Part shown: positions 7,782 to 62,154 of the stretch, piece after piece
Position numbering within the stretch: the stretch's first letter is position 1
How the letters are laid out: each line of letters starts with the position of its first letter
From: Monocercomonoides exilis PA203
Lineage: Eukaryota; Protista; Preaxostyla
DNA length: 64,000 bases
Reading direction: 5' to 3'
Assembly (NCBI GenBank): GCA_001643675.2
Contig: LSRY02000034.1
Span: forward strand, 62,001 to 126,000
Notes under the pieces: model-generated
Seen by the model: the letters and a program-made list of their open reading frames with translations, nothing else
Database searches by the model: none
Told to the model about the DNA's origin: nothing
Position numbers and translations under genes: made by a program

Positions 7782-9356
7782 ATGAGCTATCGTCCTTCAC
7801 ACGACAGAGACACAAGATTAGCTGTATTGAAACGCGGAAATGCGTTTAGTGAATCTCAACTGGTCAGTTATTTTTTTAAACATTGACCAATAACTTGTTT
7901 TCATTTTTGGACTATTTTTCTTTCATTTACCTTTATGTATCAGAAAACTCCACCACAACAACAAAAACTGTCTCAAGACAATGAAGAAGTTGAAACACCA
8001 TTGGAAGATAATGATGATTTAAATGATTTAGCTCCGCAAAACGAATCTTCTCCCCGCAAGCGTTTTTCTGAGCCAGCTGTAATTCAAGAACTAGATATTC
8101 AAGCAGAACCTGAGAAGACTAGAACAAAAGTTCGAAAATCATTCTTTAGAAGAATGGATCCTTTGGAAAGATTAAAAAAATCCATTGACAAACTTAGTGA
8201 GAATGATCTTGAAAATCAACAAAAAAAACAGCCAATTCTTTTTAGAATCTTGGACAAATCCTTCAACTGCTATCATTCAATTCATTCATGGATTCGCGCT
8301 TTCATCTTCTTACTCACAATCTTCATTTTCTCAACAGTTTTAGTTATCTTCATTTGGTCATTATTACACAGAAACATTTATAAAGACAGCGTTTTATCAA
8401 ATCAACCATCTGAAATGCACAGATTAATATGCTATATGAAATCGACTTATAACTGGACTTATGAGTTGCTTACGAGGAGATCGAGACAACTGAAAGAGAA
8501 GGAATTTGAATTTGAACAGTTGAAAAAGAACAACGAAAATCTTTTGCAACAAATAGAGCAGATCAAAAAGAAGAGCGAACAAGCCGAAGAATTGTTCAAG
8601 CGTAATCTCGAGCTTCGTAAGGTTAAGCGGCATGCTCGTCCAAATGCAGGGAATTTGATTTCTTCATCAATGGGAGGCAAAATCGTGAAGACATCAACTC
8701 CATACGACCCACTGGCCCACACACCAAAAATACCATTTTCTGTCAATCCCAGAAAGTTTGTTGATTGGCTCGTGAAAGGAGTGCTGAAGGTTGGAAGCCT
8801 CGAGTTGGAAGATGCACTGATTGTGCTTTCTCCAACAGAAATTCATGAAGGAGAATGCTTTGCACTGAACGGGAGCAAGGGTGAGATCACAGCACAGCTT
8901 TCTGCTCGTAAAGCCATCAATGCCATTTCCATTGGTCATATCCCCAAGTCTGCACATTACGATCAAGACACAGCACCTGGTGAGTTTGAAGCAGAGTGCG
9001 TTTGCAGATCCCAAGCTGATGATGAAGACTTCAATTTAGACGGAACTACAATCAAAGAGTCTTGCGCAAATAAGAATTATAAGAAACCAGAGAACTCCAC
9101 ACAATTTGCAGTGAATATGCAAACTAAACAAAATAGTTTGGAGTATTCACAGACAATTGTCACAGGCACATACTCTGCAAAGGAAGGAAAATATCAGACG
9201 TTTCATAGAGATGATTACGCAGAGACTGCAATTCTGTGCGATGAAATGAGATTTGTCTTCTATTCGAATGCTGGGAACAAGAACTATACCTGCATCTATC
9301 GTCTTGGAGCATATAAGTTGAATCCTAACAAGTTGAACGAAGACTCTCCTCAGTGA
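7782..9356 (+). CDS. SUN-domain (Sad1/UNC-84) inner nuclear membrane protein; exon 1 7782-7862, intron 7863-7943, exon 2 7944-9356
   Basis: Basic N-terminus, one TM helix (IRAFIFLLTIFIFSTVLVIFIWSLL), coiled coil, then SUN motifs GECFALNGSKG, AISIGHI...TAPGEF, FYSNAGNKNYTCIYRL. Confidence 0.88.
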
Positions 9357-10159: not shown

Positions 10160-13100
10160 TTATATGACGATATGAATGTTTGATTGAAGAACTTGCTCAT
10201 CTGTATCTTGAGACGGAATTGATAGTTTTATTCCAGAATTTTTATGTGAATTTGAAGAAAATAGTGGAATATCAATGAAATGGTTTACAATTTTTGGAGT
10301 GATTAATGCTGAATCCTCTTGTTGTGCATTTGGTTGTTCGGATTCTTTCTTGCTTCTTGCAGCATCTTTTGAAGAGCTTTGATTCAAAACGGAAGGATTA
10401 ACAGCAGAAATGGATGCATTGTTTTTGTAAGAAGATCCTTGCTTGTCTTCATCTTTAGAAGGAGTTATCCATAGAATCGGTAGAGGAGAAAACAAGAATG
10501 GAGACGAAGCACTTAAATAATGAGTAATCGAAGGATGTTGAAGTGAACCAAACGAAGTGAATGAAGAAGATTGCAGAAGAGAGCAAACAGGATGAGGTGT
10601 GATGGAAAGAGCAGAAGCAGAAGTGTTCCATACTGCTCCCTGCAGACTGAGCGAATCAATAAACACTCCGTGGAGTGGGCGTTGGTGATGAGCAATTAGA
10701 GGCGATTCACCGGTCTGCTTAGAGTGAAAATCAATTTGAGAAGGAGATGAAATGGTTGCTACAGTTGAATTATGCTGTGCCAGCTGCTGACTTTGCTGTT
10801 GCTTGCTCATCTTTTCACCTTTACCATCAAGCACTTCGGGAGGCATATCATAATAGTTCGGCGATTCATTTCTTTTTGCTTCAATTTGTTGATTCTCTGG
10901 CTTCACTTGCATTTTCTCCATGAATTCCGCATCAATTTTGCTATGTAGCTGCTCGTTCATCACCTGGACTTTGATAGCCACTTTGTCGAACGGAGTTTCA
11001 TTGATAAGAGAATATGATCGTTTAATGGCAGTGAACAGCGAATCAGGGCAGTAAAAGTATTGAAGTCTGAAAGCATATGGATCGCCTTCTTTTATCCAGC
11101 TTTGGAAAAACTGAGCAGCAGAAGCCACAACATCCAAAAACACGCACAGATGTTCCACTTTGAAGAACGAAAGAGAGTTCCACAATTTTGGTACAGAACC
11201 CGACAAAATATCATTCATTATTTCGATCAACTCCGGAGTCAGCTTCTCTTCTCCGTTCATTCCTCTGATCAACGCCTTTGTTGTTGCACGCATTTCTCTG
11301 ATCAAGCAATTGTGCTTTTCAACTTCCACCTTTGCCAACTGCACCATTGGATTGTTTGTTGAGTCAAGACGAAGATCATCATCACCCATGTTTTCGGCAT
11401 TCATTCCACGCATCAGAGCTTCCGTTGAGCTGGGTCTCAGCGCTTTTTGTCTTTGGCGCAACTTTCGCTTTGCTTCAAGTTCTCGTTCTTTTTCTTTCTT
11501 TGGATCGAATGCCGAGGGAGTGATGGGTGCCTTTGCAGCAATTGGAGTTACAAGAGGCGTTTGTCTAACTTCAGCAGTAACTTGCAATTCTGGAACGACT
11601 GTAAACTTTGGATTAGAATCGTTAAAGTTAATAGGCTTTGGAAGCTTTGATTGCAAAGTTATTAGAAGATTCCTTATTTGCGAAATTTGCATAGAAACAA
11701 GTTGAGCGCTTTTTTGCTGTTCGGTAATTTTTCCTTTCTCACTTTCAGTTTTTGATTCTTTCATTTTACTCGTTGTATTATCCTCTGAGTTATTCTTCTC
11801 GCTGTTGCTTAATTGGCTATTCAACCGTTTGCTAATATCGGAAACTTCTTCAGTTGCAACTCTGCCTTTACTCGATGGCTTTTCAAGCAATTTATCAATA
11901 ACGCCAAAGATGGTTTCTTTTTGCTCTTCAGTTTTTTCAGCAAATGGAGACGGTGGGAGATGCAAAATTTGCAGAAGCGATGAATCATCGAGAGCATTAA
12001 TATAAGAAATATACTTAGATGGCTTAGCTGAAAACGAAGGGAAAGGAGGGACGGAAGGAAGCGGAGAGGAAAAGATCGCTGATGATGATGTTGAATATGC
12101 AGACGAATAAGGTGAAACAGCAGAGACCATTGATGCTCCAACAGAATCAGAAGAAGCAAGTGCATCAATTTGAGATTGGAGTTGTTTGCCTTGTGAATCT
12201 CTCAGGTTCACCACAACACTCGTTCGTGGTGATGGCTGCATTGATCCATTACGTGAACAGTCTTCAGATGCAATTGGAGAGGCAGCATTGCTGGCATTGA
12301 CGAATGAATTGAAAATATGCTCGCTAAAGAATGTAGACAGAAGTGATGTCAAGAGCTTCCTGTCAGACTCAGTGCTTAAGCATGCCTCGTATATCTCTTC
12401 CTTCAAATATGTGCGAACTTTTGATAGGAACTTGCTGATTTGCTGAAGACGGAGCGTTTTTGCATCTTCACTTTCTTCAACTTTTTCCTTTTCTTTTTCA
12501 CTTTCATTCTCTTTGCTCCTCTTTTTGGCTTTTCCTTTTGGTGCTTTTTCTTTCTCCTTCTTTGCTCTTTCAATTTCTGCTTCAGCTTCAATATCAACTG
12601 GACTAATAAGTGCGTTCTGATCATCCAGCATGTTGCTAAGCTCAATTGCTGCTCTCTTCAGATCCTCATCTCCCCAGAACACCCCACTCTTTGCACAGAA
12701 TGTGCCGTCCGAAGTGTCCCATCCACAGACGTTGAAGTTGAGGCGAGCTTTGATAGAGGAATGGAAAAGAACGAGCGCAAAAAGCAGCCTTTTCCATTCG
12801 AAAGGATGAGATACATGCTCACGAATGAGAGAAGCACACATGTTATAAGACGATACCAATCGCTGCCGGACAGAAGTGACGGTAAAAAGAGACGGATAAG
12901 AGGGAACATTCATGAGAGAAAAGGTAGGTAGCTTCATAGAAGGCGTCATAGGTGAACGCGCACGATTGACAGAAGATGAAGGCCGCGATGAACAAGGTGT
13001 AGCTGCAGCAGAAGGGGATGTTGAATGAACAGGAGATGCTGTTCTCGATGCACGCTTTTCAAGCAAAGGTGTTGGAGGTACAGTACTAGAAGCTTCAACG

Positions 13101-16100
13101 AAAAGTTTGATGCTGAATTGCAGTGCAGCTCTAGGAATAGATGCAAAGTACTCAGAACCAGCTGTTGGAAGGCATTGAGGCACAATAAACAACCTGAATC
13201 CATTTGGCAGATGTGTTGGATGCAATCTGATCTGATCCAAAATGATCTGGAGCGTTTTTCCATCAGAATTCTTATACGGCTCGGACGGTGTTGCTGCATC
13301 AGAGATAGGATGACAACATACACATATCCAACGTCCTTCCTCCTTCGCCGCATCAAATACAGAAAGGATGTGAGACACATCGCTTTCACAAGAAGAGAGC
13401 CTTTCAATCTGAATAGGTGTTTCTTGTTTGTCTGATATCTCTTTCAGCACACTGATTGGATTCTTTGATACACAATTCGTTAGTAAAATTGGCTCGAATG
13501 GCTTTGAATTCTTAATGATATCTTCAATTGATCCAACAGGAATCGAATTACTATCAACTTCATTTGTTTGTCCTGGTGTTGCAATCTGTTTTGGCAACAG
13601 AACCGGAGTCATTGACGATGTGCTATTCTTATTTGAATGTTCTCTGGTACGTTGATTACGCAGAGACTTTGGTTGACTCATAACGAGATCACTCAGCGAA
13701 ACAACTGTTCCCAGAATGCGATTAGCAAACATATGGAGTGCAGGCATCAGACGATCAGGCCTTAACGCATCAACAACAAGCAATTGCTGCATCGGCGTGA
13801 GACAGTTGCTCCACGGCTCAGGCATTGAAACAAGTTCAGGCGTATTTGAAATACACCACTTGCCCCACTCTCCACGGGATGTTTCCGTGATCGATGAAAC
13901 AATTCCAAGCCAAGGCTTTTCTTCTTGTGTATGGATTACATCATGTTTGGTACTTGAAGAAGCAGAGGATTCTGCCTGGTTTGTGTTCGTGTTTGCTTTG
14001 GCTTCAGATAGTGACTCTCGTTCGATGTTGCTTGAATCACGCCCGCCTGAAGGAGAAGCAGGTGTAGATACTCTCATTCCTCTTCGAGATGCACGTGATT
14101 GAGAGGCCCTTGTTCCTGTTCTCGGAAGCTTGTGATCGGTGGAAGGATGAGAAAGATCTTGAAGATTTGAATGCACAGGAGTGACTTTTGTAATGACACA
14201 TTCCTCCAGCTCGTTGATGCGCTTCCACTGTTCAATTGTTAAAAATGTTGGTTTTTCGTTTGAGAAGTTTTGAATCCATTCTCCTTGATCATCATTTGTT
14301 TGAAGTTTTGTAGAGGCACTTTCTGAAGCCATTGTTGGAGATGGTATAACTGAAGGAGAAGAGGGTGCAACACCTTCGTCTGACAACAAATTATCTTTTG
14401 GATCTTTCTGTGAAATGCGATCAACTTCTTTGCCTTCAACGTGATCATCAAAATGTGTTGGATTCAAATAATCAGCACGATCATCTCTTTCTCCAGCATC
14501 CGTCTCTGACTGTGACTGTTCAGCGCTTGAGTGATGAGACAGAAGCCACTTCCATTCATCATCATCAATGCTATGTTCAATCTTCCCAACAAAAGCAGCA
14601 GATAAAATTTCAAACACCAATGCGTCTTCTTCAAGCATTCCATGCGAAATGCAAGAAAGAACATTTCTTGTTACACATTGTCCCAATTCCATTTCTGTTA
14701 CACTGGCCAATCGTTGCTTATCTGAACGAACTGCATATGAAATCTGCTTTCCATCTTCAGTTTGCTCGCCTAACTTGTTCAATTCATTCTCACTGTCTCT
14801 GTTAAGATCGGCCAAGCTTCCTTTAACCCTACTCAATTCTCGTTCACTAACTCCGAACAGTTTCACAGTACGTTCGACAACACCTAAAATTTGTGATAAT
14901 GGGAACTGATATGCACAGCCAGAAGAGATCATCTTTTGCGAAGCTACAATAAGTTGTGTTACTTTCCGCGCAATAGAGCGGAACTCTTCTCGCTCTGTTG
15001 TGACTGCCAATGCAGCTGATGCGTTTGATAGAGTGCGATTTCTTATTTCAATGCAATTTGATCTGCTTTTTTCGAATGTTGTAATTGCTCGTTCCCGTTG
15101 CTGCTTTATGACCTCCTTTTCTGTTGTTTCTGAATACTTTTCTTCGGTTTTTTTATCATCAACATCGACTTCCTCTTTCTTTTCATCAGCTCCTTCACCA
15201 ACATTATTCTCATCCTCTTCCTTTTTCAAAGGAGATTCCAGCTTCAACGCATCTGGCGAGAAGGTCAGAGTTTCATCATCACAAAGAAGCGAACTTGTAA
15301 CCTCTCCCAGAGCAGCTAACATGGCTGCTTGTTCCTTTTTCATCTGAGCTACATCTCTACTCGTTTTGTCAAGTATTGAATTGTGTTCATCTTCCAGTTG
15401 CGGGCATCGATGAGATACAATCAACGACAAAATCTTCTCTTCAGCACCGGCTGCTGTAAACGGGAATAAAACCACTGGAGTGCTAACGAGTAATGAAGGT
15501 GGTATGTATGGTGCAGGGTTCGTGGTAACCAGTGTGAGCGAGAAAGCTGGAGAAATAGAAATAGTGACAGAATTGGATAAAGCCAAAGTTTTGTTTGCAT
15601 TCAATGAAGCAGGCTGAGCTAACGCAGCAGAAGAGGAAGAGGACGATAATGTTGATGCAGATGCAGATGGAATTGGATTCGTTTGAAATACAATGTTTGT
15701 TAAGTCCTTCGAGAGAAGTTGCTGTATAAGCGGATGAAATCTGTCAATTATATTTTGAGAAATGGCATTTGACCCAGAAAGGTTCGGAGTATCGAATGCA
15801 TTTGTCTCAATAATCAATGGATAGCCATGCCTTACACATGATTCAATTGTCTTTGAAAGTGCTTCATCTCGTTCATGGCAGAAATGTGCTCCTCGTCCCT
15901 TCCACACGCTTTTCATCCACTTCAAAGCCTGCATTTCTGGATCAATCACGATCGAACATCGCTTTGTGAGATTGCTTCTTGTCAGAATAATTGCAGAAGC
16001 AATACTAACAGAATCGTTGTTTAGTCCTGCATTGCTTTGAGTCCACTGTCTGATTGTAACAGTATCACCAAGTATTTCATCCAGATAGAATGACCCTTCT

Positions 16101-19100
16101 CCATTTGATGTGTAGTGTGGCAATCCATTTGCTGTTAGCAGTTCGGCCCAGCCATCCACAAGCGCACGGCGGTGCTCAGCGTTCAGAGGTCCCAAATACA
16201 CAAGCGATGCTGCAGATAAAAGAGCATCTCCAACCAAAGTGGAGAGAGACGCTGAAACATTGTTCAGCGATTCCTTCCACGATATTTCCGCTTCTGATTC
16301 CATTTCTTCCAGCAGATTTTCGCCTTTTTCGATCAACTTATTTGTTTGCGTTATCATTTCAATAACTGCTTCCTTATGTGCTTCAGCTATTGCCAATGCC
16401 TCTTGTTTTTCATCTCTCGCTTTCACCGCATCTTCCGAGTTTTGTGTCTTTTCAAGCAAAAGCTTCTCACAATCACTGAGACGAACATCAATATCCTTAA
16501 GCAGATCGCGTTTTGGCTGCACTTCACGTGACACTTCAGAATAGTCATACAGCGCACGAACCCACGCACACAGTGTCTTTGCAGCTGTGGAGACTGCTTC
16601 TATCACTTCTGGCTGGAATTTTGGTGAGGAAATAAAAGTCTTTCTTAAATGCTTCTTTGTCTCTTCGTCAAGAGATTCGATGTCGAAGTCCTCAAACCTC
16701 AGCGAAATGTCGAATGTGAGGAATTTCTTGGCAGAGTCCCAAGTCTGCGGCTCTTTGAAGATCAGACAAACTGCCTGCATCACAAACATCACCAAATCTG
16801 GCGGCTTCACAAAGGAGCGTATTTCCTGAATGTCCTGCTTTGATAGTGTCTGAAGTGCTTTAACGCACTGGTTGTAGCGCGGTAAAGCTCTATTCAACTC
16901 TTTTGTTATCTCTTCAGCTGTTGTGTTTCGCTCATTCTGGATTTCGTCTCTGTTTCGCTTGACATTTGCCTCTTCTTCTTCCTTCTGTGACAAGTTCTTC
17001 TCTTCAATGTCCAATTCTTCTCTCTTCTTTTTCACTTCCTTCATTGCGGCATCCAAAACTGGCGCAAGTTGTGTTTTCTTTGATTTCAGTGCTTCAATGT
17101 CGTCTTTCGTCTTATCAATTGATTGAACTCCGAGAATTAGCGCAGACTGTTCTTGTGTGAGTCTCTCAGTTAATTCTCTATGGATTCGCTCAAATGTGTG
17201 GAGTAAGTTGTTGAACATGACCGAAGAAACATACGTGATACATGGAGACCGACGTTGCTTCTCATTTTGTCTACTGTTAAAACCATTTACCGAATGTTCA
17301 TTCGTTTGATTCGTTTGATTTCCATCATTTTTGTGATCTTTATCTTCCATTAATTCATTATTCCGGTCTTTCTCTTCAAGCAATAGTCCGTTAACGATGT
17401 TCTTTAATGAATCTATTACTCCATTTAGTAAACACTCATCTTCTTCTTTCGCAATTCTGTCCGTAAACTCAATAACAAGTTGATGCATCGAGACACATGC
17501 ATTCACAACCAGTGGAAGAACGTGCGTTTGCAATGGCCAATTCATCGCAACTCGCCAAGCTATCTGCAGAAGACTGTCGTTTGAAGGCACACCAATAGAA
17601 AGCAGATGACAATGATGAAGAATTGAAGGATAGATCGAAACGGGAGATGAAGGAGGCAAATAGGTGGATGATGAGGTTGAAGGAGATTGCGAAAGCAAAG
17701 TAAGAACTTTGTGTATTGACTTGGATGATCCATAACCCAATGATAAATCAGTGTTGGAAAAAGCGAATGCAATGTGAACATTATTTCTGATTGAAAGATG
17801 GAGCTTGTAAAGCAAAAGCCCTCTGTCAATATCCAAATCCTGCTCTTTGTCAAAGTCCTGTCCGAACTCAGATCTCGTCTCTCCTCTGCTTCCTGGATCA
17901 TGTTCAGTGTAATCTTCCATTTGAACTGCCCTCTCTTGCTCTTGTCTGAAGAGAATATCAACGATTTTGTCTTCTTCTTCTGGTTGGAAAAGATTCGAGC
18001 ATTCACCTTCATCAAGAATTTGCGTGATTTCCTGCATGAGCCAGGAGACTTTGCAATCATCGTCATCAAAAAGGAGAATAAACTTCTGATCATTAACAGC
18101 AGCTTCTTTTGCAATGCGCTTCATTTCAGTTCGAAACGCATCGTGACTTTGTTTAACTTCATTGGCCGTGTTTGAATTTGCAATTCCCCTTATGAACCTT
18201 TCTTCTGTCTGTTGGCTAACTGTTTCAGAATCACCAATATCACCACCCCTTTTGGATTCGCCCCTCATTTTTCCTAAGTTGTCCACAACTGTCATCCGCG
18301 ACATGGCTGCACAGAGTCGAATGAGTGTTTTCTTTTCTCCTCCAATACCTCCATTCAACACAATATGTCCGCGAGGAAATCGGAGAATGCGCGAAATGTG
18401 GGCCAAATGCATAAGATTGTCTTCGCATAGGTCAAGTGAAATGGGCTGAAGATCCTGATGCACAAGCTGTGGAGGGAATAATGCAAGGGAAATACCCTTT
18501 TCTTTCAATTCTTTTTCTTTCTCTTTCAAAAATGCGAGCTTTTGTGGAATCAGGCGATTGTGGTTGTCAATGTGTTTTTCAACAAGCTCTGCCAGAGAGT
18601 TATCAATTGGTATTTCTCGATAAACTCGTTCTTGTGCAGCTCCACTGTTCTGCCCAGCTGTGTTCCCATTCATTCCATTATCCTCAAATTCTTTTCCATT
18701 TAATAAATCTTCGCTACTATCATTCAAATTGAATCTTCTTTCTTCTTCTAAGTTTTCAGAAGGAATCGTTGAGAAGTCAGAAAAAAGCAATGTGTTTGGA
18801 TTCTTCAAGTTCAAATCCGCAAGAAAATCGTCTTCAAACACACCAAATCCTTCTTTGACAATCTTCATAATTTGCGTGTCAAACACTTTTTTCTGAGGAA
18901 GCTCAATCAATGGATCGCGGAATGAGCGTGTTATTTCGTGTATCCACAGGCGAGCAAGCGATTGTGGCGAGACAAAAGATCTCGGAGAGGCACTTAGCAC
19001 ACCACGCAGTGCACGGAACAATGAATGAGTGGTGACAAGAGGAATGGATGTGGAGAATGGCAGCAGAGGAGATAGTTGTTCCTTCAGTGATGAATAAAGA

Positions 19101-22100
19101 GATACTGTTGCATCACACACAAATCTCGAGAAAGATTGAACAGACATTCCGATGCCTTTTGATGGGTCAGAGAGAAAAGCGCGAATTATTCCTGACACAG
19201 CAACAGAAAGCGAACTGTCAATTGGAGGCATTTGAAGAACATGGAAGTGATGTGCAAGACGAGCAAGCGAGGATTTGTAAACAGAATATGCTGAGCTCAC
19301 AGAATCATATTCAATATTCTGGCCATAAACTGCTCTTCCATTTTGTGAAGTTGACAATGTTTCCACGAAAATCGTATCACAAACTTCAGTAAATGAATTA
19401 TCATTCACTGCAAATGCACCTCCATCTTCCAATATTTGCCTTGAAAGCTCCAAAGCCGAAGTAAACGGAGCTCGTTTTGAATGCAAAGACTGATTTAATG
19501 AATCACTTGAGTTTAACATTTCAATGTTCTCAAGCAAAACAATTGCTTTTTTCCCTATTGGTGGTCCAATCAGCGAAGTTCTTCTCTGAACGAGCTGATC
19601 CCGGAGGCTCAACTTGACATCATTGGCACTTGTCTTTGCAGAGCAAGTGATTGTGACTGGATATATCGTTTCCACCCATTGCTGCGATCCAAAAAGATGT
19701 CGCATCATCGAACTTTTCCCACTGCCGTATTCGCCAACAAGAAGCACATTTTGCCCCGCTTCAGCTAAAATCTTTAACACAGTTGAGGTTGCGAGTGATT
19801 CGTTTGTAGGAACATAAGCCATTTCAAGAGGGAGTGCAGGCGGCAAACGGAACACTGCGTTGTTTCTTGAGCTCCACTTTTCCCACTGATCCGTCTGATT
19901 ATCTACGACCACATCGAAAATGTTAACATTTTTGGGAAAAGCAACATCGCCAACAAAACTTACATATTCATCGTCATCTGCAAATAATGCAGAAGGGTGA
20001 AGTGAGCTTAATCTTGTGGAAGGTGTCATATTTCCATCAGTTGCGAATGAACCAATTGAATATGTACTCCTCTGTGTTAGTCCAGTAGCACTTGGAGTCG
20101 TGGATGTAACCCGTTTTTCGCTAAGGCATACCAATCCTAACAGAAATTGATTGAACTTCTGTTTGCTTTCTTCGCTCAGAACAGAGCCAACAGTCCAAGT
20201 AATAGCAAAAATTAAGTGTTTAGCTGCAAGTGACTGTGAATAATCTGTATCAGCAAACTTCTTCGACTTCAACAGCTCAATCCACTTGCTTAGAGAGATA
20301 TTGAATTGATTTGATTCCGAACCTAACATGCTGGCTTTGCCCAATATTTGCTGTCCTGCTTCTCCACCAGTTCCCTTTTCATTCGCATATGTCCTCTCTG
20401 CTCGGTACACACGCGACGTTGTCGGATTGGACGGCTGTGCAAATGATGAAGGTGCAAGAAGCTCACGTTCTGTGTCTGCTCGTGATGTTGACGGAGTGGT
20501 TGGTAAAAGCGCAGCCAGTTTCTTCACTGATCCTTGTCTGCGCTGCATCTTCTTTGACTTCATTCGACTTGCACCGCGTTCTTCTTGTGCTGCTTTCCCT
20601 TTGAGTTTCTTTCCATCAGTCGAGTTTGGAGTAGGTGCCATCGATGAAGAAGATGCAGTATTGTTTGCCTCTGGCTTTGAAAGAGAGTTAACTCCCCTCT
20701 TTGACTGCTCCTCTGACGCAGCCGTGGTTGCGAGGAATGTGAAGAGCTGAAGCGTTGACGAAAGAAGATGAGGCAGAGTCGAAAAGATGCAAAGTTTAAG
20801 GCTGTTTGGATACAAATCCTTGTTGGCATCAGACATGTTTGGTGTGGAAATTTGAATGTCTGATGCTGAATATGCTTGTCCTGTTGGAGAAAGAGACAAC
20901 GACGAATTGATTGCGCCTAACTCTGAAAGATAAGGTGAAGGCGTATTTGGTTGTGTCTCATTGTTGTTTTCGTTGCTCTGCTTATTTGCATTTCTATTAT
21001 TTCCCATGCCATTTTCAGCAAGAAAACGGAAAATGGGGAAAACGAAGTATTTCAACGCATTTTTCGCAAAGGCATCACGAGAAGGAAACGCACCCACAAA
21101 CATCTTCTGCCACATTTGTGCAATGCCAACCCAAGAAATGTTGATGTCATCCAAACAAATAATTCCCATTTGAGACAAAAGCGAAGGAGACAATTCAGAC
21201 GCTGAATTTAACTCGAAAACGAGCTTTGTTGATAGAGGAATGCGGAACTGTTCACCGTTTGGTAAAATGGCACTTGGAGAGAACGGATTGGCAGATTGAA
21301 TAAGCGAATAGAGAAGACTTGTAGCAGCTGGGTTTGCAGCGAGATCACCGTCTAATCGGAGAATGTTGATTGCTTCTGAATTGTCTGCTGAAGAAGTATT
21401 TTCGCTTGAAGATGAAGCAACAACTTGTTGAGTTGAAGTTGATGCAGATGATGATGCAGACGATGAAGAAGTAGAAGCTGAAGCTGAAGCAGAAGCAGAA
21501 GCAGAAGCAGAAGCAGAAGTAGCAGCAGCAGCAGAAGAAGATGATGAAGGATTTGTGGCAACCGTACTCTTTGGAATCACAGATTGTTTGAACAGTTGTC
21601 TGATTTGGGATGTTATGAGTCCTTCATTCCAACTATCCGTACTGTCTTCATAGCAACCAAACAAACTGTCATAACTTTCAACTGAAAGATGAACTGACGC
21701 AAGTTTTATTTGTGTGAAAAATCCATCTCTCAAGTTGTCTGAACCGAATCCTTTATTTTCCTCTGTCCGATTGAACTCTGATGAAACTTTGCTCTTTTTC
21801 CCTTTTTCTTTCATAATCGTTTCGCTCATTTTCTCGTTCTTTTCAAGAACTTTCTTTTGTCTCTGTATTTGTACATCGTGCAGATAGCAAACAGCATTGC
21901 ACACAGCTTTGAGCAGCGTCGTTTTCCCGCAACCTGCTGGCCCTACAATTGCGATTGCTGCCCTTTTCTGGATTGTCTCCCACAAATCTGCGCCTTTCTG
22001 GACAAGCTCATCACTGGCTGTGAAGCCAAGCTGCCAAAGATGTGCAGACAGGGCATTTCTCAAGAGTAAAGAGCGATTGAGAGAAGGAGGCGAGGCAGGA

Positions 22101-25100
22101 ACATCGCTCACTTGGAACACTTCTTGCTCGATTGCGCAGAACCTCACAAGAATAGAAGGAGAAAGGCGTGGGAAAACAACTTCGTTCAATGCCTGCAAAC
22201 ACAATGCCTGGTCTGTCTCTTCCTCATTGATCAGAAATGCATCGTCCAAATCGAAGCTTAAATCATCTTCGCCTTCATCAAATCCATAGTCGCTGTTTCT
22301 TCTCGACTGGATGGTGCTTCCTTTGCTGCGGCTGGTCTTTTCTCCTTTTATTGGCTTCATCTGCTTGTTGAGCCTTCTGACTCTCCGTTGTTCTCTCATC
22401 TTAATTCGCTGAATAATGCCTGGAATTGAGTCAAATATGAGTGCAGGTGTCCAGCTGATGTACGAAGCATCTGGAAGCTGCTCGCGGCAGACATCGATAA
22501 AGTGCGAAAAGGCGCTTGCGATGGAACGAGAAGCAGAAATGCCAGCAGAAGAGAGAGAAAGCTCAAGCAAAAGGTTTGGATTCGGTGAAATGAGAGAAAT
22601 AGGGCGGAGTGAAGTGCCGAGTGCTGTCTGAAATGCAGAGTAGAGGTTGCACGAAGTGTTTGAGGTGGAAGAAATCGAGTAAACAGAATGAGAGCTTGCG
22701 ACGAATGTGCGGGTGAATGGAGAATTCAAGATAATCATCGAATGTGGGTGAAGTGAGATTGTTTGGTTGTTATAAATAAGTGATGCTTGTTTCTGAGCAG
22801 CAGCAGAAGAAAAGTTTGAAACAAACTCTGCGAGAAGAGAAACACTTTCAATATCAAGCAATTCTGTTCCGGTAACATTGACAAACGCTCCAATCTGCGT
22901 AAAACAAGACATGAAGCGAAGCAATATTTGCCACGAAATTCCCTGATGTGTTGCCAACTCCCAGTATTCTCTTCCAATCGCCGAAGCAACTGCACGAACT
23001 GTTGCACGTTTGCCGTGCATTTCTGGAAAGCCGCTCAGAAGCGCAGATGAAGAAGCAAAGAGAGATGATATGATTGAAGTGAAAGAACTGACATTATTCT
23101 CTGTGATCAGCACAATCTCATTTTTTCCTTGTAGTTCACAGCCATACCCAAAACTTGAGTTCCCTTGCTGAACGATGCACTCTGCCTTTTCGGGATCCCA
23201 TTTCATCCGAAGCTGTCGTGTCCATTCTTGTTCATCGGCAGAGGAAATGCGATTGCGAATGAGTTCATTCACAACGTCACGCTGATGCTGAACGAGTATT
23301 ATAAGTGTTGATAGAGTTGAAAGAGGCAGAAGAGAAGCTATGTTCTTTGGCGAACTTGCCGTTGAAGCTAAAGACAAGCTATTTGTTGTTGTTGCTGCTG
23401 TTCTTGTTGCTATTGTTGCATTCAGATTCACCTCTTCTTCACCCAACGAAGCATTCAGCTGCTTATGTGCGTTCACAAACTCTTCACATAAATAATTAAG
23501 AAGCCCCACAATTTCATTCAACATGTAGTTATCTTTGCAACTTTCGCTTGCTCTCACAGGTTCTGAAGCCTTCTCAGATGAGGCATTTTCTTCGCTGTGC
23601 GCGGAGTTTCTGTTCATCTGTTCAAACGCATCTTCGACAAGTTCTGTGAATTCGATTTGAAGTGCAGTGATAATCGACTGTGATAGTTCCTGTTGGACTG
23701 CTGGCAGATATGCTTCTTCGTCACACAGCTGCAGCGAGTTCTGAAGGCTTCTGGAGATTGTGGAGCGCATTGATGACTCCAGCGTGGCTAGCCAACGATC
23801 AATATTAGCTCTCGTGCTGATTGGATCTGCGAAGAATACTTTTTCACCTGAAACACATTCAATTCCAACGATTGATTGCTTTGGCTGAGCCGAAGAAATG
23901 GCAGGCACAGCAGTTGGCGAGAGAACAGAAGACGAAGCATTTGACTGGGCAGACTGATGGCGCATAAGAGCAGATGATGTGTGATGGCGTAACAGCTCGT
24001 TGGATTTGTTTGAATCCGATCTGCCTCTTGAAAGAGGTGACAAAGCAGAAGGTGTGCTGGTGATATTTTCAATGTCTGAGACAAAGATGAGACGCCGAAT
24101 GGAATTGTACAGCTTTGAGATGACCTGCTGGATGGTTGAAGGATCATTGGCAGAGCTTGAGAGGATGCTGAGAAGCTCCGCGTTGCTGAGCAGATTAAAG
24201 CGCGGGAATGAATTCCTCTTCGAGTCAAAGAAAGAAGTCAGTTTGCGCTCGATGGAGCTCAACAGAGCGCTGCAGTTGTTCAGCGACTGAACCACATTTG
24301 GCACTTCAACCACTTTCATGCACAGCGGATTGCTTGACACAGAATCCACAAATGCTTTCCATATCGCCTCTGCCGAGTTGAACTGCTCAGCTTCTTCTGT
24401 CAGCTGCTTGTTAACATCGCTCTGGATAAAGAAGTGGTACAGTAGCACATAAAGTTTTTGGCACTTGACTTCGCTTTCTATCAGAGTTTCCAAAGTGGCT
24501 AGGTTATAATTCCATTCATCCACTTCCTTCTTCACAATAGCAATGAAAGGCGATGCCAGCATGCTTTGAGCCATCGTCAGATGTTCATTCAGTTTCAACC
24601 GAATTTCCTCCTCTCCTTCAATTCTCATCGGTGCCTTGCCCTTCACACCCAGTTTTACTCTAAAGCTTTGCGCCGCCCAGTATGCTTTGATCTCATTCAT
24701 CTGCTCAATCAGCTTGTGTTCTCCTTTCGCCAGCGAGCTAATCTGCGCAATCTGTTGTCTGTACTGCTGAGCACCAATCGACAGGAACTGCGCCACCGTC
24801 AGCGTGGGTGACCACTGCTTCCCCATCTGCTCAAACAGCTTGCGCCAGTGCCTCGGCTCCATCGCCTTGATGCACAGCGCACAGAGCAGCGGGACAAATG
24901 GCACGAAATCTGAAACCATCTCCTTCAGACGGTGCACAATTGGATCATCGATCTCGCTTTTCTCCGCAACTGACAGCTGCTTCCGCGCATCAGCAACCAC
25001 AGTGGACAGCTGCTCAGCGTCCAGCTCCGTCAGCAATGACGCTCGCCATTTCGCGCTTTCTGCAGAGAACGAGGAATACAACTTCCACACCAACTCTCTG

Positions 25101-28100
25101 TGCTCAAAGCGCGCCACACATCTGTTCACACCCGGAAAGGCTATCTCGCTCACGTTGATCACTTCTCTGCACCGTTCCAATTGCACTTGCCTGTCTTTGT
25201 ATTGGTCGACTGCCACTCTAATCACATCCAGACGATGCAGAGCGGCCTGCGGATCAGCCGAGTCGTCGATCAGGATTCCGCCACCCAAGTCTGTGTATGT
25301 TTGCACAGTGTCTGACTCGAGTTTTGCTGCTTCTTTGTGGAGTGCAGCGACCATCCTGTTGTGCTGGCTGTCTTTCGCTTCCTCTGCTTTTGCCAGTGCC
25401 ACTTGAAACTCTGTTTGTGCATCATGCACAGCCGAAAGCGCAAGCTGCTCGTCAATCGACAGCTTTGTGCCTTGCAAATCGCACAGCTGCCGCATCTCAT
25501 CAAGTGAAGTGACAGCCATCCGCAGTGTCATCTGCTTCTCGTCCATCGAAGCCAGTAGCTCCACAAACGCGCAATAGTCAACCAGAGAGCGCGGCAGCTG
25601 CATGAGTGTCTCAGTCAGATCTTGGAATGTCTTTGTCGTTGTGACAGCGATCGAGTTGAACAGCGCATGCAAGTGTGCCTTGATTTGCTCGCTGCATGTT
25701 TGCGGGATTGGTGTCAGCGCAGCCTTCAGCGGACGGGCATCCATTGAGAGAATCCCCGCCACGCTGCTCACGTTGATGCGGATGATGTCGCCCAGCCACT
25801 CCGACATGCGCTGCAGATCCATCTTCAGGCGGTTCACATCCTTTACTTCAGACACATACACTTCTGGATCCCACCTCAAAGAGTGCTCAAATATACAGCC
25901 GAGCGAGCGGAAGCGCTCCAGGCTCTGCTCTGCCCGAATGAAGGACTCCTCGATGATCTCCATCAGTTCCTTTCGCGCCTCCACAAAGCGCACGTCGTTT
26001 GCCAGCAGCGTAGGCAGGTCCAGCCCAACCGGCGCATTGCGAGGAAGCAGAGGGCGATGCGGCGTGAGGCGCAGTGGGCGGTCGGCAGAACAGAGAAGAG
26101 TGATGCATTCGTTGATTGTGGCATCCACAAGACGCAACACTTCCTCCTTTGAGGGCGACATCTGCAGCTCGCAGCGGCTCAGCCGGATTCGCTGGGGCTT
26201 CGCAGTAACGACACCGTTGTTTCCCATCCTTCCAAGCGGAGCAGATGCAGACGAAGAAGCCGAGGGAAACATCGAAGAAGAGAAAGGCTGTGTGGAAGAT
26301 GCGTTGGCTGTTGAGAGTATTGACTGATTCAGCAACCCGTTTGCTTGCGACATATTGGCTGGTCCAAATGCGTTTCTGAGAGATGAAGCAGCTGCCTGTT
26401 TATGCTTGCGATGAGGAGAAGTCGTTTGCGAGAAAGCGGAAGATATAGAATTCCTGCGTGACTGACTCTGACTTGCTCCAGTTTTGTGCTTTCTCTTTAA
26501 TGTGTTATTGTTGCTGTTGTTATTATTATTAGCGCCTTTATTGTGATGACGATGATGACGTCTTGTAGCAGATGCACTGACATCGCCACGAACACTCAGT
26601 GAATTATTTTTATTAGCTCTTCTGTTATTGTAAGCATCTGAAGCATCTAAATCACTTTCTTCAGTCTGATTCGAGCGCTTTCTGCTTTTCGCTCCTTTCA
26701 TCGCACCCTTCCGATTCGATGCGCCAAATCTCATTTCATTACCACTTTCGTCTCTATGCTCGCCTTGTTCATTGAATGCCTCACCAGAAATGCTATTCTC
26801 CTCATCATACAAATCTCCTGCATCTGACACAGCTGAGGAATATGACTCAGCATCTTCATCTTCAAAGCTACTGATATTTCCATTGTATTCTTCTCCTTCT
26901 CCTTCTCCATCTTCGTCTTCATCGTAACCATCAGATCCATCCTCATCGTCTTCTCCTGAACTTTCTTGATTCTCTTCCACATCTTCATACTCCACAACAT
27001 CTCCCATCATCCACGGAATGCTGATGTGCCTGTTCTTCATCTTTTTATCCGCATTTCCTGAATTGTTCTCCATCTTCCCGTTTCCGTTTCCATTTCCATT
27101 GTTCGCATCGGCTTCATTATTCGCTTCCTCGTCACTATCACTTTCATCGTCATTGTTTTCCACCACATATTTCACCTTCTCCTCCTCCAGCACTTCTTTC
27201 TCGCTCCTCTTCTTCTCCACAAACTGGAATGTCACCTGGAAAACTGGCTTTTTCGCTGCCAGCGCCGCCTTGACTGTATTCTTCGTCTCTACAATGCTCT
27301 CCACCATCGTGTTGAACAGCTTCGACACACAGATGTTGTCCAGCAGCACCACAAACCTTCCCAGCATTTTCTCCTCCTCCTTCGCTACAGCAATGGCGTG
27401 CAGCCTTCCCTCTCTCTCCTTCTTCTGTGCAGCCATCGACTGCTGCAGTGCCGACGACTTCACCATCGACGACAAAGCAACCGCCGCTGCCTCGTCTTCC
27501 TGTGCTGCGATGCTCTCCTGTGAATACGCCCTCGACAGCACGTCTGTCACCAGCGCAGCCATTGCCGCTGCCATCGTCGTGGAGGCTGTCTGGATGCGCT
27601 CTTTCGTCTCGTTGCGGCAGCTCTCCTCAAACTGAACGAAGGACGGCACATCGAACGGCGCGCCTTTGTCCAGCTGTACTTGCAGTTGAGGAGATTTGGG
27701 GTAGTTCACAATAGAATTTGCTCGAGAGACAGAAATTGGCTTTTGCTGAGAAGAAGAAGAAGAAAAAGAGGAGGAAGGAGATGCTGTTGCAGAGAGGGAT
27801 GAGATGAATGAAGAGAAAGAGTTGATTGATGCGGCTGGAACTGTGCTGTTCAGCGAACTGTTGCTTCCTCCGTTGCTTCTGGTCCCATTCAGCATCAGAA
27901 CACCTTCATCAGAAGAAGAAGAAGAAGAAGAAGTTCCATTCTTCGCTGCATCTCCGTTCCCACTCCCATTTCCTCCTCCGCTTCCTCCCTCACCTCCCTT
28001 CGGATCTTCAATCGCTTTCTCCCTTCTTGTCACACCCACTCGAAACGGGAGTGTTTCACAGACAGCCTCGTAAAGCGAGCCGAGGCGAAGGAGAGCAGCG

Positions 28101-31076
28101 CAGAAGCAGTCGTGTGCCCAGAAGAGGTTTTTTCTCTGCTGGCTGCGGTTGTGCCGGAATATCTGCAGGCGGATGAGGCGCTTCCATTTGGTGAACGACT
28201 TGATGAGAGGGAAGTTGAAGAAGAACGGAATGCGCCGGATGGCTGCGAAGAACGACGCCTCCTGCACAAAACGAGAAATGGACATCGCTTCGAAGGTGGG
28301 GACGGCATCGTCTTCGGAGAAAGAAGAAGAGGAGGAGGAGGAAGAGGAAGAAAATGAAGTTGACTGTGAAAGCGGTGTTGGTTTGTCTGTAGAACTTTCG
28401 CCTACTGTCTTCTTTTTGAGTGCTCCGCTTGTTTGCAACGAAGCATTTCTTCTTCCTTTCTGTAGTTGTTGTTGCTGCTGTTGCTTTTGCACATTTTTTG
28501 CTTTGATATTCTTTCTATCATTGCCGTCGCCTTCGTCTTTGCTGATATATCCTTCATCTTCTGTCTCATTTTCTGTCCTTCCTCTTTCATCGCTGTTCTC
28601 ATCGCTGCAACCTTCGTCATTCAATTCCATCAAACGTGCATCATTCCTCTTTTCCCCTTCTCCTTTCCTTCTCTTCATTTCTCCTCTTTCTCCTTTTTCT
28701 CCAAAAGCAGCCACCCCTCTTGCATGTAGAGGCAGCCCTTGCTTCTGCTTCGTCCTTTGCCTTGCTGCTGAGCGCTGAATGGCCTGCTGCTGCAGCTCAG
28801 CCAACCGCCTCATTTCTTTGTTAGACGGCACAACGTGAACAACACCGGACACAGAAAAAATGTAATGCTCTGCTTCGACGGCTTCTTTGGGGACGACAAC
28901 GAGATTGTACGGGTTGTATAGCTCTTGGCGCACTCGCTCATCGACAAATGGGAGAGAAGAAGAAGAAGATGATGATGATCTACTTGCATTGTCAATCTCT
29001 GTATTATTCGTTGTTGCATTCAACTTCAATGCTGTTGGAGAGCGAGAAACGTTTTGTGAAGAAGAAGAAGCTGTTTGTGCGAGTGGGTCGACTGTCAGCT
29101 CTGGCGGATGCACAATGTTCATGTAGATGAACTTCAGCGTGTCTGATTTGCCGGCGCCGGCAAAATACGTTAGCACATCGTCGACAGTGCTCAGGATTTT
29201 TGCGGCTTCAGAGTCAGGCGTGCTGAACTTGGAGCGAGGGTTGGTTGTGGATACAGCAGCATTAGCAGAAGAGGAAGGAGAAGAAGATGAAATGGTTACA
29301 CTTTTCGACAGTGTTGATGACTGCTGAGAAGGCGAATACAATGGAGTCAACGATGAAGTTGAAGAAGAACCAGAACCAGAAGATGAAGAAGCATTAGCAT
29401 TCGAAGACAAAGCACGAGGAGCATAGTAAGTGTTGTGCTGTGTGGTGATTGACGACACAGAAAACGAAGCCGCTGGGGGGAAGGGCGACCTGCGGACGTT
29501 TGCAAGCGCTGCAGTGGTTGCATCGGCTGATTGGAGCATTCCTGTTCGGCTTCTGCTGCGCCGCGCAATTTCGTTGACGGAATGAGATGTGCCGCGGGTG
29601 GAGTAATTCGAAGTCGACGAAAAAAGAAGCAGCCCGCTGTCGTCTGCTCCTTTCTCGCTGGAAATGGCATTGCTGTTGTTACTGTTGTTATTACTGTTAG
29701 TACCAATGGTGGAATACCTTGCTCCTTCGTTTCCTTCTCTTTGCTTCTCAAACGCGGTGTTTCGACTTTCCCGCAGGCGAATGCTTCCTCTCAGAGATTC
29801 CTTCAGCGGCTTCAGGGCAGAAGACGCAGAAGACGCTGAATGCCGCGTGGGCGAAGCAGAAGAACGAGGCGGGGGTGGCTGCTCAGCCGAGGCAGCGCCT
29901 TTCGCTTTTTCTGCATTGGAAACAGAGAGAGAACGAGACACAGAGGGACTTTGCCCTTCTTTTTCTGTGAAACCTCTTTGAAAACTGCCTTCATCTCCTT
30001 TCTCTGCACCGACACTGAGCGAGGCTCCGGCAAAGCTGCCGTCTGAAGGAGCAGGGAGCTCTGTGTCTGTGTACGTGTCTGTGCCTAGAGACGGGGCCAC
30101 CACAACTGTCAGTCCTCCACTTCTCTCTCTCTCTTTGGCTCTGAAACCTCCTTCGCTCCCAGCCCGCACTCCACTGCTCTCTCCAAAGTGCTTCACGCGG
30201 GGCGGGTGCAGCAGAGCCCATTTGCCATGTTGTGGCTCTTTGATCTGTGAGGGCTTCATCGGCAGCGCAAAGGGATCAAGCTCGGCTTCGTCAAACGTTA
30301 AAAGAGATTTTAACTCGCTCCTGTCTCTTTCCTGCTCTCCTCCGCGAGATTTTTCTAAGCTGGGTTTCTTTTTGGCTGCTCCACCCGCTGCTTGAATTTT
30401 CTTCAGCTGAATTCTCTCTTTTGTCTCGTCTTTTCCAGAATTTTGACTTCTTGACTGCGAGAAATCTCTGGAAGATCTAACTCCATCCCGATTCTTTGGT
30501 TCAGAAGACGAGCTTGAAGCTTGAAATGGGCTAAGCTTTTTCGGTTCATTTCCGCCAACTGGCGGAGGAGGAATTCCATGTTGGGAAAAAGGAGATGAGG
30601 ATCTTCTGAAAATTAATTGTGACTGTTGAACAGACGATGAAACATCTTTTTCAGTATTACTAACTGAATACAACGCTGCTTGTGTTGGAAATGACGAATG
30701 AAGTGTAATCTTTGATGCTGAATTTTGCTTTTGAATTTGTCTAATCGTTGGAAACGCTTGCGCTAAAGCAGCTGTCAAGTTTAAAGCACATAGAGAATCA
30801 TTCGTCTGACTTGCAATGTATGCCCTTCGTACGACGTCAATCAACTAATAAATTGTCATAAATATTGCATTAAATAAAACATAAAAAGAATAGTCAAAAA
30901 ATGTCATTACACAAAATAATTTTTCAATTTTTAAGAAAAATGAAAACTTCTTTACTCGGAGATTGAATAGCTTTATCCCCAACTAACCGTTGTAGCTCCT
31001 CACAAATTAATGTCCATTTTGATACTGAATTTGTTTTAAGTGCATCAGAAAATAAAGTTAACAATTTTGTTTCCAT
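10160..31076 (-). CDS. Divergent dynein heavy chain, DNHD1/inner-arm-like, ~6,937 aa; exon 1 31076-30948, intron 30947-30845, exon 2 30844-10160
   Basis: Linker (MEPRHWRKLF, FPRFNLLSN), AAA2 GPAGCGKT, AAA3 GEYGSGKS, stalk/MTBD (DIQEIRSFVKPP...LCAWVRALYDYSEV...VQPKR), LVGDALLSAASLVYLGP, C-terminal GVFIDSLSLQGAVW. N-terminal YNPYNLVVVP...EHYIFS resembles DNHD1/DNAH6-type tails. Confidence 0.9.
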
Positions 31077-61681: not shown

Positions 61682-62154
61682 TTTTTTTGCATAAACATTC
61701 ACTTCATCTTTTTGCATTTCCATTTTTTATTTTTTGTGCAGAACACTCATTCACTCAACAAAATAACAGTCATGATTTGCAAAATAGATGAAAGTGCTTT
61801 TTCAAAGAATATCAAGAATTTACAAGAAAAATGAACATTTGAAAAAAAAGAACATCATCAAAAATAAGAAATAAGAAATGAAAAACAAAAGAATCAAGCT
61901 TGTTGAATTTTTCTATGTGCTTTGTGAAAAGAAATATTTTCAACTTCAAAAATACAATCCAATATTCGCAAAACTCATTCAATAAATAAATTTCTGAGTT
62001 TGAAAAGCTGAAATGTTCAATGCAAAAAATGGAGGATAAGGAAAAAATGTAAGTTTTTTCACCATTCTTTTTATTTTTGGCTTTCTAATTGAAATTCCTC
62101 CAATTTCCTCAAATGCTCACAAAATAATCACAAACATCCAACGATAAATTACAA

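Follow-up and report, generated by a model that had tools for sequence, protein, structure and literature searches.

In dynein, mutagenesis of AAA1 abolishes motility, as stated in the accessible part of the source (PMC2533788). Structures of non-motile dyneins are described, as far as the accessible part of the corresponding preprint extends, only from animals (DNAHX, with a broken stalk; PMC11785096), and DNHD1 counts as non-motile by prediction. DNHD1 forms class 11, which is reported to be confined to metazoans (Kollmar 2016, PMC5100056), and is required for sperm flagellum integrity according to the portion available of a further study (PMC9916431). In Chlamydomonas, inner-arm tails of the DHC9beta type are tied to actin and centrin, and chimeras of DHC7 and DHC9beta have been described (Kollmar 2016, PMC5100056).

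The window analyzed here is a stretch of 64,000 nucleotides from Monocercomonoides exilis PA203 (contig LSRY02000034.1, positions 62,001 to 126,000). Its minus strand carries a gene for a full-length DHC9beta dynein with an erased AAA1 site and a conserved stalk. With a probability of roughly 0.6, this protein is a likely non-stepping, ATP-insensitive tether or brake, whose engine was likely lost within the oxymonads.

Gene structure and domain order

The gene encodes a complete dynein heavy chain in which a linker, six AAA modules, a stalk bearing the microtubule-binding domain, and a C-sequence occur in order (Table 1). Pfam detects DHC_N2, AAA_6, AAA_7, AAA_8, MT, AAA_9, AAA_lid_11, and Dynein_C in this succession, and a full-length alignment to a profile built from 40 intact dyneins also covers all these modules. 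The predicted protein comprises 6,937 residues. It carries approximately 2,800 residues more than intact DHC9beta relatives—mostly of low complexity—and has a Ser content of 13% versus 6–7% in two relatives. The acidic insertion in AAA5 sits on a hairpin that we take to be the buttress.

Table 1. Features of the dynein gene, in window positions
Feature	Positions	Strand	Detail
Predicted exon 1	30948..31076	(-)	43 codons, in-frame ATG at 31076
GT-AG intron	30845..30947	(-)	103 nt; joint 30844-30948 in RNA run X2
Exon 2	10160..30844	(-)	6,894 stop-free codons + TAA; whole dynein heavy chain, many Ser-rich inserts
DHC9beta-type N-terminal tail motifs	28040..28918	(-)	YNPYNL...EHYIFS...GVVHV, then next helix; split by a low-complexity insert; YNPYNLVVVP 28918-28889, EHYIFS 28870-28853
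Linker (Pfam DHC_N2)	23738..25123	(-)	E 7.6e-85
AAA1, catalytically erased (predicted)	22442..23146	(-)	Motif, profile, and MAFFT alignments; GFPEMHGKR 23032-23006, FVNVTGTELL 22885-22856
AAA2 P-loop	21920..21943	(-)	GPAGCGKT, intact
AAA2 arginine finger serving AAA1	21164..21184	(-)	SLLSQMG, Arg to Gln
AAA3	19523..19735	(-)	Walker A GEYGSGKS intact; Walker B altered (LLENI 19537-19523)
AAA4 P-loop	18326..18352	(-)	GGIGGEKKT, altered
Stalk	16229..17230	(-)	CC1 116 aa, microtubule-binding domain 122 aa (16882-16514), CC2 95 aa
Acidic insertion at AAA5 buttress tip position	15092..15265	(-)	~57 aa; two offset alignments to Barthelona P0222
Remaining AAA5, AAA6, C-terminal domain	10163..15091	(-)	Long inserts; AAA_lid_11; Dynein_C E 6.6e-26

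The start codon is a prediction because the RNA contig of run X2 reaches only positions 30980–30948. The intron joint is present in this RNA run and absent from all three DNA-type runs; no further intron-like joint was found in exon 2 among the sequencing-run alignments. This RNA run bears the label "synthetic metagenome" and is made up of contigs; it therefore documents the spliced form of the transcript, not its expression level.

The first-pass annotation had described a 20.7-kb frame without stops, and this holds: the minus-strand frame 30844–10163 has none in 6,894 codons, where base composition would predict approximately 390; the two remaining frames of the minus strand contain 280 and 423. 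Reading TAA and TAG as Gln is unnecessary for this gene since neither occurs in frame. Over positions 11500–31000, substituted letters are absent from all four sequencing runs, three of which may be the source sample itself. AAA1 is spanned by one 5,429-base contig each in runs X1 and X2, with neither differences nor gaps. Single-base deletions are restricted to run X7, with one at 22569. Assembly error as the source of the AAA1 motif loss was ruled out on the grounds of the four runs free of substituted letters.

The AAA1 site and the stalk

The eight motifs quoted in the first-pass annotation all lie in one minus-strand frame where it had located them. Its claim of a dead AAA1 motor site is borne out as well: in three alignments—to human DNAH6, to the profile of 40 intact dyneins, and by MAFFT—the altered motifs fall on Walker A, Walker B, and the AAA2 arginine finger, and intact Walker motifs were not found elsewhere in AAA1. 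The P-loop features one extra residue and Arg in place of Thr, with the Walker A Lys retained; Walker B has lost its DE, and the sensor-II Arg is also gone (about 22444). An active motor is defined here by seven residues (AAA1 Walker A GKT, Walker B DE, sensor I Asn, sensor II Arg, and AAA2 arginine finger), of which one is retained by automatic alignment, or two with the Asn of ILNSP included, so that this dynein does not qualify. Its score is the lowest of 146 aligned rows, and 129 of the other 145 retain all seven.

Conserved AAA1 columns are retained at 42 of 131 positions, compared with 130/135 in Kipferlia and 129/133 and 123/134 in two Barthelona proteins. Compared with the DHC9beta group, AAA1 reaches a mean identity of 24%, versus 63% for the intact Barthelona P0222. 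The AAA ring is relaxed as a whole (20–27% identity), with Ser-rich inserts throughout. The structure prediction of AAA1 that the first-pass annotation had proposed yields a pLDDT of 77 and a pTM of 0.73, with TM scores of up to 0.81 to dynein motors; AAA1, with its catalytic residues erased, is accordingly still predicted by this model to keep its fold. A first model (800 residues, 19 rows) was poor, at a pLDDT of 42, and was set aside.

The damage annotated in AAA3 and AAA4 is present but weighs less than implied: in intact dyneins the AAA3 Walker B is mostly DD, and the commonest form of the AAA4 loop, GVGGSGRQS, occurs in 18 of 115. The AAA2 P-loop is conserved, as annotated. The AAA3 Walker A, which had not been listed, is intact.

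The stalk was likewise annotated as well conserved, and its lengths and the conserved columns of the binding domain agree. CC1, microtubule-binding domain, and CC2 measure 116/122/95 residues against a modal 116/122/94, and both boundary prolines of the binding domain are retained. In the binding domain, 16 of 20 conserved columns are kept—a test resting on these 20 columns—which differs from AAA1 (Fisher p=8.8e-5) and from the whole ring (p=0.002). Its mean identity to the DHC9beta group is 37%, versus 40% for Barthelona P0222. The coils show little sequence conservation (CC1 5/15 columns, CC2 6/14), and at one helix-6 position, where 58 of 95 intact dyneins have Lys or Arg, this protein has Ala. 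As judged by sequence comparison, stalk geometry is canonical and the microtubule-binding domain is the best-conserved part of the protein. The one residue by which CC2 exceeds its canonical 94 and the buttress insertion could bear on registry and affinity.

Class assignment and relatives

Tail profiles score 220 bits for DHC9beta, 91 for DHC9alpha, and less than 25 for classes 6–8. The binding domain of 122 residues is as in class 9; those of classes 7 and 8 have 133–148. Tail and linker group with DHC9beta, apart from DHC7 (chimera) and DHC9alpha, where DHC9beta is a label that we infer for the group and the green-algal P0097 pairs a class-7 motor with the same tail. As judged by tail profiles and tail and linker trees, the protein belongs to DHC9beta, a class of inner-arm dyneins with a single head.

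In a site-heterogeneous tree of tail and linker, SH-aLRT values are 100 for the oxymonad clade, 99 for Preaxostyla, and 98 for metamonad DHC9beta; this main tree was built as a "quick" tree lacking bootstrap values, comprises 679 columns, and includes no DNHD1 sequence. The comparison with DNAH6 and other classes that the first-pass annotation had called for thereby ends in DHC9beta: AU tests under LG+G4 reject a grouping with DHC9alpha/DNAH6 (p=3.3e-5). They also reject monophyly with three other dead dyneins (p=4.5e-6), against the proposed ancient family of pseudo-dyneins. A whole-motor FastTree of 106 rows placed the protein with other long dead branches at the base, outside all classes; this group was regarded as probable long-branch attraction in light of the stalk and linker comparison, the site-heterogeneous tree, and the AU tests.

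The nearest relatives are oxymonads and Paratrimastix, in line with the annotated oxymonad host, and the branching order matches Preaxostyla within Metamonada. The oxymonad clade nests together with full-length proteins from Kipferlia and Barthelona that have a near-intact to intact AAA1, the nearest intact members being Kipferlia bialata GIQ83153.1, Barthelona KAL0232167.1, and EP00792 P009033/4. This nesting makes a lineage-specific loss of AAA1 likely, and the engine was likely lost within oxymonads, separately from the dead dyneins of animals. The sequence pieces of Streblomastix, Blattamonas, Paratrimastix, and P0107 stop before AAA1; a search among shorter proteins for the AAA1 of oxymonad orthologues gave two distant animal matches only, and two metagenome scans gave no relatives among 270 and 126 pattern matches. 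Linker identity to Paratrimastix is 35%, compared with 52–53% for two other oxymonad pieces, which points to faster evolution of this linker than of theirs.

Since the other dyneins with a damaged AAA1 form no single clade with this one, pseudo-motors appear to arise repeatedly. The idea of pseudo-motors thereby gains in generality while the present example loses in uniqueness, and the claim of an ancient origin for DNHD1-type pseudo-dyneins falls away.

Proposed role and comparison with known systems

An erased AAA1 site together with a conserved microtubule-binding tip makes a passive tether or brake likely. By established dynein mechanics, the lack of the Walker A Thr, Walker B DE, sensor-II Arg, and arginine finger would abolish hydrolysis in AAA1, and in this case neither linker swing nor cyclic release from the microtubule would take place. 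The tail would dock in the manner of DHC9beta-type tails in the inner arms of Chlamydomonas, and structural nucleotide would stay bound in the P-loops of AAA2 and AAA3. The stalk would be fixed in one registry—most likely the nucleotide-free, strong-binding one—and drag or a fixed cross-link would result at some positions along the axoneme or in a microtubule array that does not slide.

The location of such a tether may differ. The axostyle of this organism is not known to be motile. An oxymonad-specific DHC9beta duplicate turned static strut, cross-bridging the axostyle or another non-axonemal ribbon, is a location variant of the tether or brake explanation and an unlikely one, albeit with some chance. 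A permanently bound head would be an obstacle in a sliding axoneme and would fit a static bundle, and motile axostyles bear dynein-like intra-laminar cross-bridges, as described in the accessible parts of two reports (PMC2114570; PMC2108841). The tree hints at two oxymonad copies, one comprising this dynein, Streblomastix P0186, and P0107 (SH-aLRT 89), and a second putative one, set apart, comprising Streblomastix P0073 and Blattamonas P0075; however, the split is unstarred and P0186 fills just 31% of columns. The tail, moreover, is of the axonemal inner-arm type, with its best structural matches being the Chlamydomonas axoneme chains 8glv_Mm and 8glv_Me, in the 96-nm repeats. The more specific proposal, that DHC9beta was duplicated in oxymonads and this copy is the dynein-like cross-bridge of the axostyle seen by EM since the 1970s–80s, acting as a nucleotide-independent strut, is improbable. 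If true, the axostyle bridge would have a first candidate gene, and the protein would be a dynein naturally locked in rigor and one case among several in which class-9 dyneins of protists lost AAA1 independently.

It is similarly doubtful that the protein acts without the microtubule, as a DNAHX-like non-motile partner of other heavy chains, pairing with them, inhibiting them, or chaperoning them at assembly. DNAHX, in the accessible part of the preprint, combines a degenerate AAA1 with many inserts and dimerizes with another heavy chain in a phi-like form (PMC11785096), and the ring fold of the present dynein is predicted to be kept. Yet the tail and linker here are of the single-headed class 9 and not of outer-arm derivation, and the stalk and binding domain, broken in DNAHX, are free of disrupting insertions; two rows that we infer to be DNAHX-like have segment lengths of 157/227/115 (P0061) and 155/219/120 (P0063).

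The DNHD1-type identity put forward in the first-pass annotation is very improbable. It would make the protein an orthologue of animal DNHD1, from a shared ancestor dead before the metamonad/animal split. The tail motif YNPYNLVVVP...EHYIFS, which that annotation likened to one in animal DNHD1, had been read as its mark, but the pattern is matched by 14 proteins and occurs in working DHC9beta-tailed protist dyneins. A targeted homology search with this motif for DNHD1 sequences gave one candidate and no matches, and the ESM Atlas returned generic AAA_6 clusters only for AAA1–AAA2 and no usable match for the tail. Loss of the AAA1 Walker B residues is shared with DNHD1, as described in the available portion of PMC11785096, but is not diagnostic because several unrelated dyneins show it. 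DHC9beta is reported absent from Holozoa (Kollmar 2016, PMC5100056), which leaves room for DNHD1 as its animal descendant; even then, the loss of catalysis would be convergent. The protein nests among metamonad proteins with intact AAA1, and class 11 is reported metazoan-specific, with the closest relatives here outside Metazoa.

Least probable is a decaying functionless duplicate or a slow atypical ATPase motor: the ring is diverged and filled by inserts, Walker A retains its Lys, and the P-loops of AAA2 and AAA3 are undamaged, but the fall in AAA1 identity from ~63% to 24% came with no stop or frameshift in 20.7 kb, the intron is spliced, conservation unevenly favors the binding domain, and at least five of seven catalytic residues are gone.

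For the tether or brake reading, the new elements are the DHC9beta origin, the protist host, and an engine that appears erased while the microtubule grip is kept. From this pattern, a passive brake or cross-link would be expected, and axoneme models need such a role. The DHC9beta/IAD-5 single-headed inner-arm dyneins (PMC5100056) share with this protein the tail type, the 122-residue binding domain, the stalk length, the domain order, and the tree position; in contrast to intact members, it features erased AAA1 residues, a ring at ~24% identity, ~2,800 extra residues, and the buttress insertion. DNHD1/CCDC35, the class 11 orphan (human 4,753 aa), is likewise a full-length dynein with AAA1 Walker B lost but, compared by description only, is reported metazoan-only, whereas this dynein nests among intact metamonad DHC9beta proteins. 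DNAHX/dynein-X (Chai et al. 2025 preprint, PMC11785096, in its accessible part) is also long, with many inserts and a degenerate AAA1, and its non-motility is a cryo-EM conclusion; that of the present protein would follow from sequence. DNAHX is of outer-arm origin, is reported from animals only, and keeps the AAA1 Walker B and ATP with a broken stalk, whereas this dynein is DHC9beta-derived, occurs in a protist, and has lost Walker B with the stalk kept—the reverse of the DNAHX pattern.

Gene model and sequence support

The minus-strand frame of the window dynein heavy chain (window DHC) comprises 6,894 codons without a stop, where base composition predicts approximately 390, and the window features 38% GC and the standard code. 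This agrees with the first-pass annotation, whose quoted motifs were all located where it had placed them in this one frame. Together with exon 1, the predicted protein has 6,937 aa; its closest relatives are proteins of Streblomastix, Blattamonas, and Paratrimastix. With the GC content and code, these relatives indicate that the host is likely a Monocercomonoides-like oxymonad. The splice joint was looked for in three DNA-type runs and is absent from all three; the RNA run X2 is labeled "synthetic metagenome" and consists of contigs, so that splicing is visible but not expression level. None of the four runs—three of which may derive from the source sample—lists a substituted letter over 11500-31000, and AAA1 is spanned by single contigs, one each in the runs X1 and X2, without difference. 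Elsewhere in the window, two short frames share a near-identical motif, QEHHNLT.LAYQS, which suggests that they may be copies of a repeated gene family.

Features of the window DHC gene and neighboring frames
Feature	Position	Strand	Remark
Window DHC frame	30844-10163	-	
Intron of window DHC gene	between 30844 and 30948	-	103 nt, GT-AG; joint in RNA run X2
Predicted exon 1	in-frame ATG at 31076	-	43 codons; frame reading
SUN-domain open frame	7887-9353	+	Sad1/UNC (SUN) C-terminal domain; convergent with window DHC gene
Open frame, 3,038 codons	33249-42362	+	partial C-terminal protein kinase match only (Pfam PF07714, E 7.7e-7)
Open frame, 3,420 codons	43302-53561	-	no Pfam match at E 0.001
Two short frames	~60900-63000	opposite	QEHHNLT.LAYQS

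Catalytic sites and stalk

The Pfam domains of window DHC are, in order, linker, AAA1, AAA3, AAA4, stalk, AAA5, and C-terminal. All collected proteins of at least 300 aa were aligned against a profile built from 40 intact dyneins, and seven AAA1 catalytic residues were scored (Walker A K and T, Walker B D and E, sensor I N, sensor II R, and the arginine finger) in 146 rows including window DHC; fragments and rows gapped there were dropped, among them some degenerate dyneins (P0228, P0052, and P0121, for example). All seven residues are present in 129 of the 145 other dyneins. Window DHC carries one (two when the ILNSP Asn is included)—the lowest among the 146 rows—and its AAA1 P-loop is one residue longer, which bears out the dead site annotated earlier. 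Other dyneins stop moving when AAA1 is mutated (PMC2533788, available text). Window DHC is very likely motor-dead. AAA2 and AAA3 both retain an intact Walker A, in line with the conservation claimed for the AAA2 P-loop. The changes in the AAA3 Walker B and AAA4 P-loop are present as well but are lesser evidence because intact dyneins are already non-canonical at those sites. Structure prediction, proposed earlier for the AAA1 pocket, yielded an AlphaFold2 model (42 alignment rows; pLDDT 77, pTM 0.73) with the AAA+ strand–helix order and a TM of up to 0.81 to dynein motors; since it is intact homologues that give the alignment its depth, the model speaks for fold compatibility and not for the state of the catalytic pocket.

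The stalk features 116 residues in coil CC1, 122 in the microtubule-binding domain, and 95 in coil CC2; the modal lengths are 116 (119/123 rows), 122 (30/123, and 16/26 class-9 rows), and 94 (120/123). Among columns at least 70% conserved in 95 intact dyneins, window DHC retains 16/20 in the binding domain versus 42/131 in AAA1 (p=8.8e-5); the other counts are 45/70 (linker), 26/69 (AAA2), 34/60 (AAA3), 13/30 (AAA4), 29/53 (AAA5), and 47/101 (AAA6 onward). The stalk had been called well conserved, which holds for the binding domain and the near-modal lengths but not for the coils (5/15 and 6/14). Three features count against full function: an Ala in helix 6 where 58 of the 95 intact rows have Lys or Arg, the one residue by which CC2 exceeds the mode, and approximately 57 acidic residues inserted at the buttress tip.

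Tail class and origin of the loss

The tail scores 220 bits against the profile of DHC9beta, a single-headed inner-arm class, 91 against DHC9alpha, and below 25 against classes 6–8. Among solved structures, chains 8glv_Mm and 8glv_Me of Chlamydomonas match it best, which fits the DHC7-head/DHC9beta-tail chimeras described by Kollmar (PMC5100056, available text). The tail motif previously tied to DNHD1, the class-11 animal dynein, matches 14 proteins of the set in a pattern search; because these include full-length dyneins with intact AAA1 (among them P0001, P0077, and Barthelona P0222), the motif identifies a family of tails, not one of dead motors.

A linker tree (FastTree) and a tail-plus-linker tree (site-heterogeneous IQ-TREE, quick mode, 34 rows, 679 columns) place window DHC in an oxymonad clade (100) nested in Preaxostyla (99), in turn in a metamonad clade (98) that also includes one Kipferlia and two Barthelona proteins; these three retain 92–97% of conserved AAA1 columns. 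This placement, in trees without DNHD1 rows, argues against the annotated DNHD1-like pseudo-dynein family, and the loss of catalysis is probably independent of DNHD1, compared here by description. DNHD1 could still be an animal descendant of DHC9beta; the catalytic loss would then be convergent. AU tests (21-row subset, LG+G4) reject grouping with DHC9alpha/DNAH6 (p=3.3e-5) and with three other dead dyneins (p=4.5e-6); the basal joining of dead sequences, including window DHC, in a whole-motor FastTree is read as long-branch attraction.

Identity to Paratrimastix is at par in the late tail (26% versus 21–29% for other oxymonad pieces) but reduced in the linker (35% versus 52–53% for Streblomastix P0073 and Blattamonas P0075); hence, the motor half was accelerated and the docking half was not. 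A split with a support of 89 weakly suggests two oxymonad copies, the divergent one possibly comprising window DHC, Streblomastix P0186, and the oxymonad-clade row P0107. The oxymonad and Paratrimastix pieces all end before AAA1, and two metagenome scans for further such pieces found nothing.

Several motor-dead dyneins unrelated to window DHC occur in the comparison set. P0199/P0225, P0026, and P0211/P0227 (Logan/ENA, ~3,900–4,000 aa) form a clade of full-length dyneins with the AAA1 Walker B lost, canonical stalk lengths, and, in P0199 and P0026, DHC9alpha-type tails; this is a second, independent case of a dead engine with a kept stalk. The class-9-tailed P0056/P0228 (Tritrichomonas musculus KAK8900496.1) and P0052 (ENA) have erased AAA1 motifs and do not group with window DHC; in P0228, binding-domain conservation is lost too (7/20 columns). 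AAA1 is also degenerate in the stramenopile dyneins P0207 (Platysulcus tardus; class-7-type tail) and P0121 (Aphanomyces euteiches).

Proposed role and known non-motile dyneins

From the erased AAA1, open frame, canonical stalk, and DHC9beta tail, we consider window DHC a tail-docked tether or brake, with a probability of roughly 0.6 for the full reading. By established mechanics, window DHC, having no AAA1 hydrolysis cycle, would neither perform a power stroke nor detach cyclically. The strong microtubule-binding state of dynein is the nucleotide-free one. With the tail docked, the head would hold a neighboring microtubule with a single, unchanging affinity, most likely that of this strong state, and window DHC would serve as a brake or cross-link. 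The axostyle instead of the flagellum is a real alternative site by analogy with motile axostyles, for which dynein-like bridges are described (PMC2114570 and PMC2108841, available text).

The loss of the AAA1 catalytic residues is real; non-motile dyneins as such are already known. The literature searched contained no account of an oxymonad dynein with a dead motor, and the M. exilis genome supplement, outside that search, may list the gene. In their available text, the genome paper reports a nearly complete axonemal set and nothing further on dyneins, and PMC12637542, PMC12338079, and PMC6492006 hold nothing on a dead oxymonad dynein. DNHD1, termed an orphan or ghost gene (PMC8754002), is required by sperm flagella (PMC9916431), both in the available text; it lacks the AAA1 Walker B according to the accessible part of the DNAHX preprint (PMC11785096), as does window DHC. 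The same part reports DNAHX, an animal non-motile dynein, as absent from protists: A degenerate AAA1 is common to DNAHX and window DHC, whereas the stalk is broken in the former and canonical in the latter.
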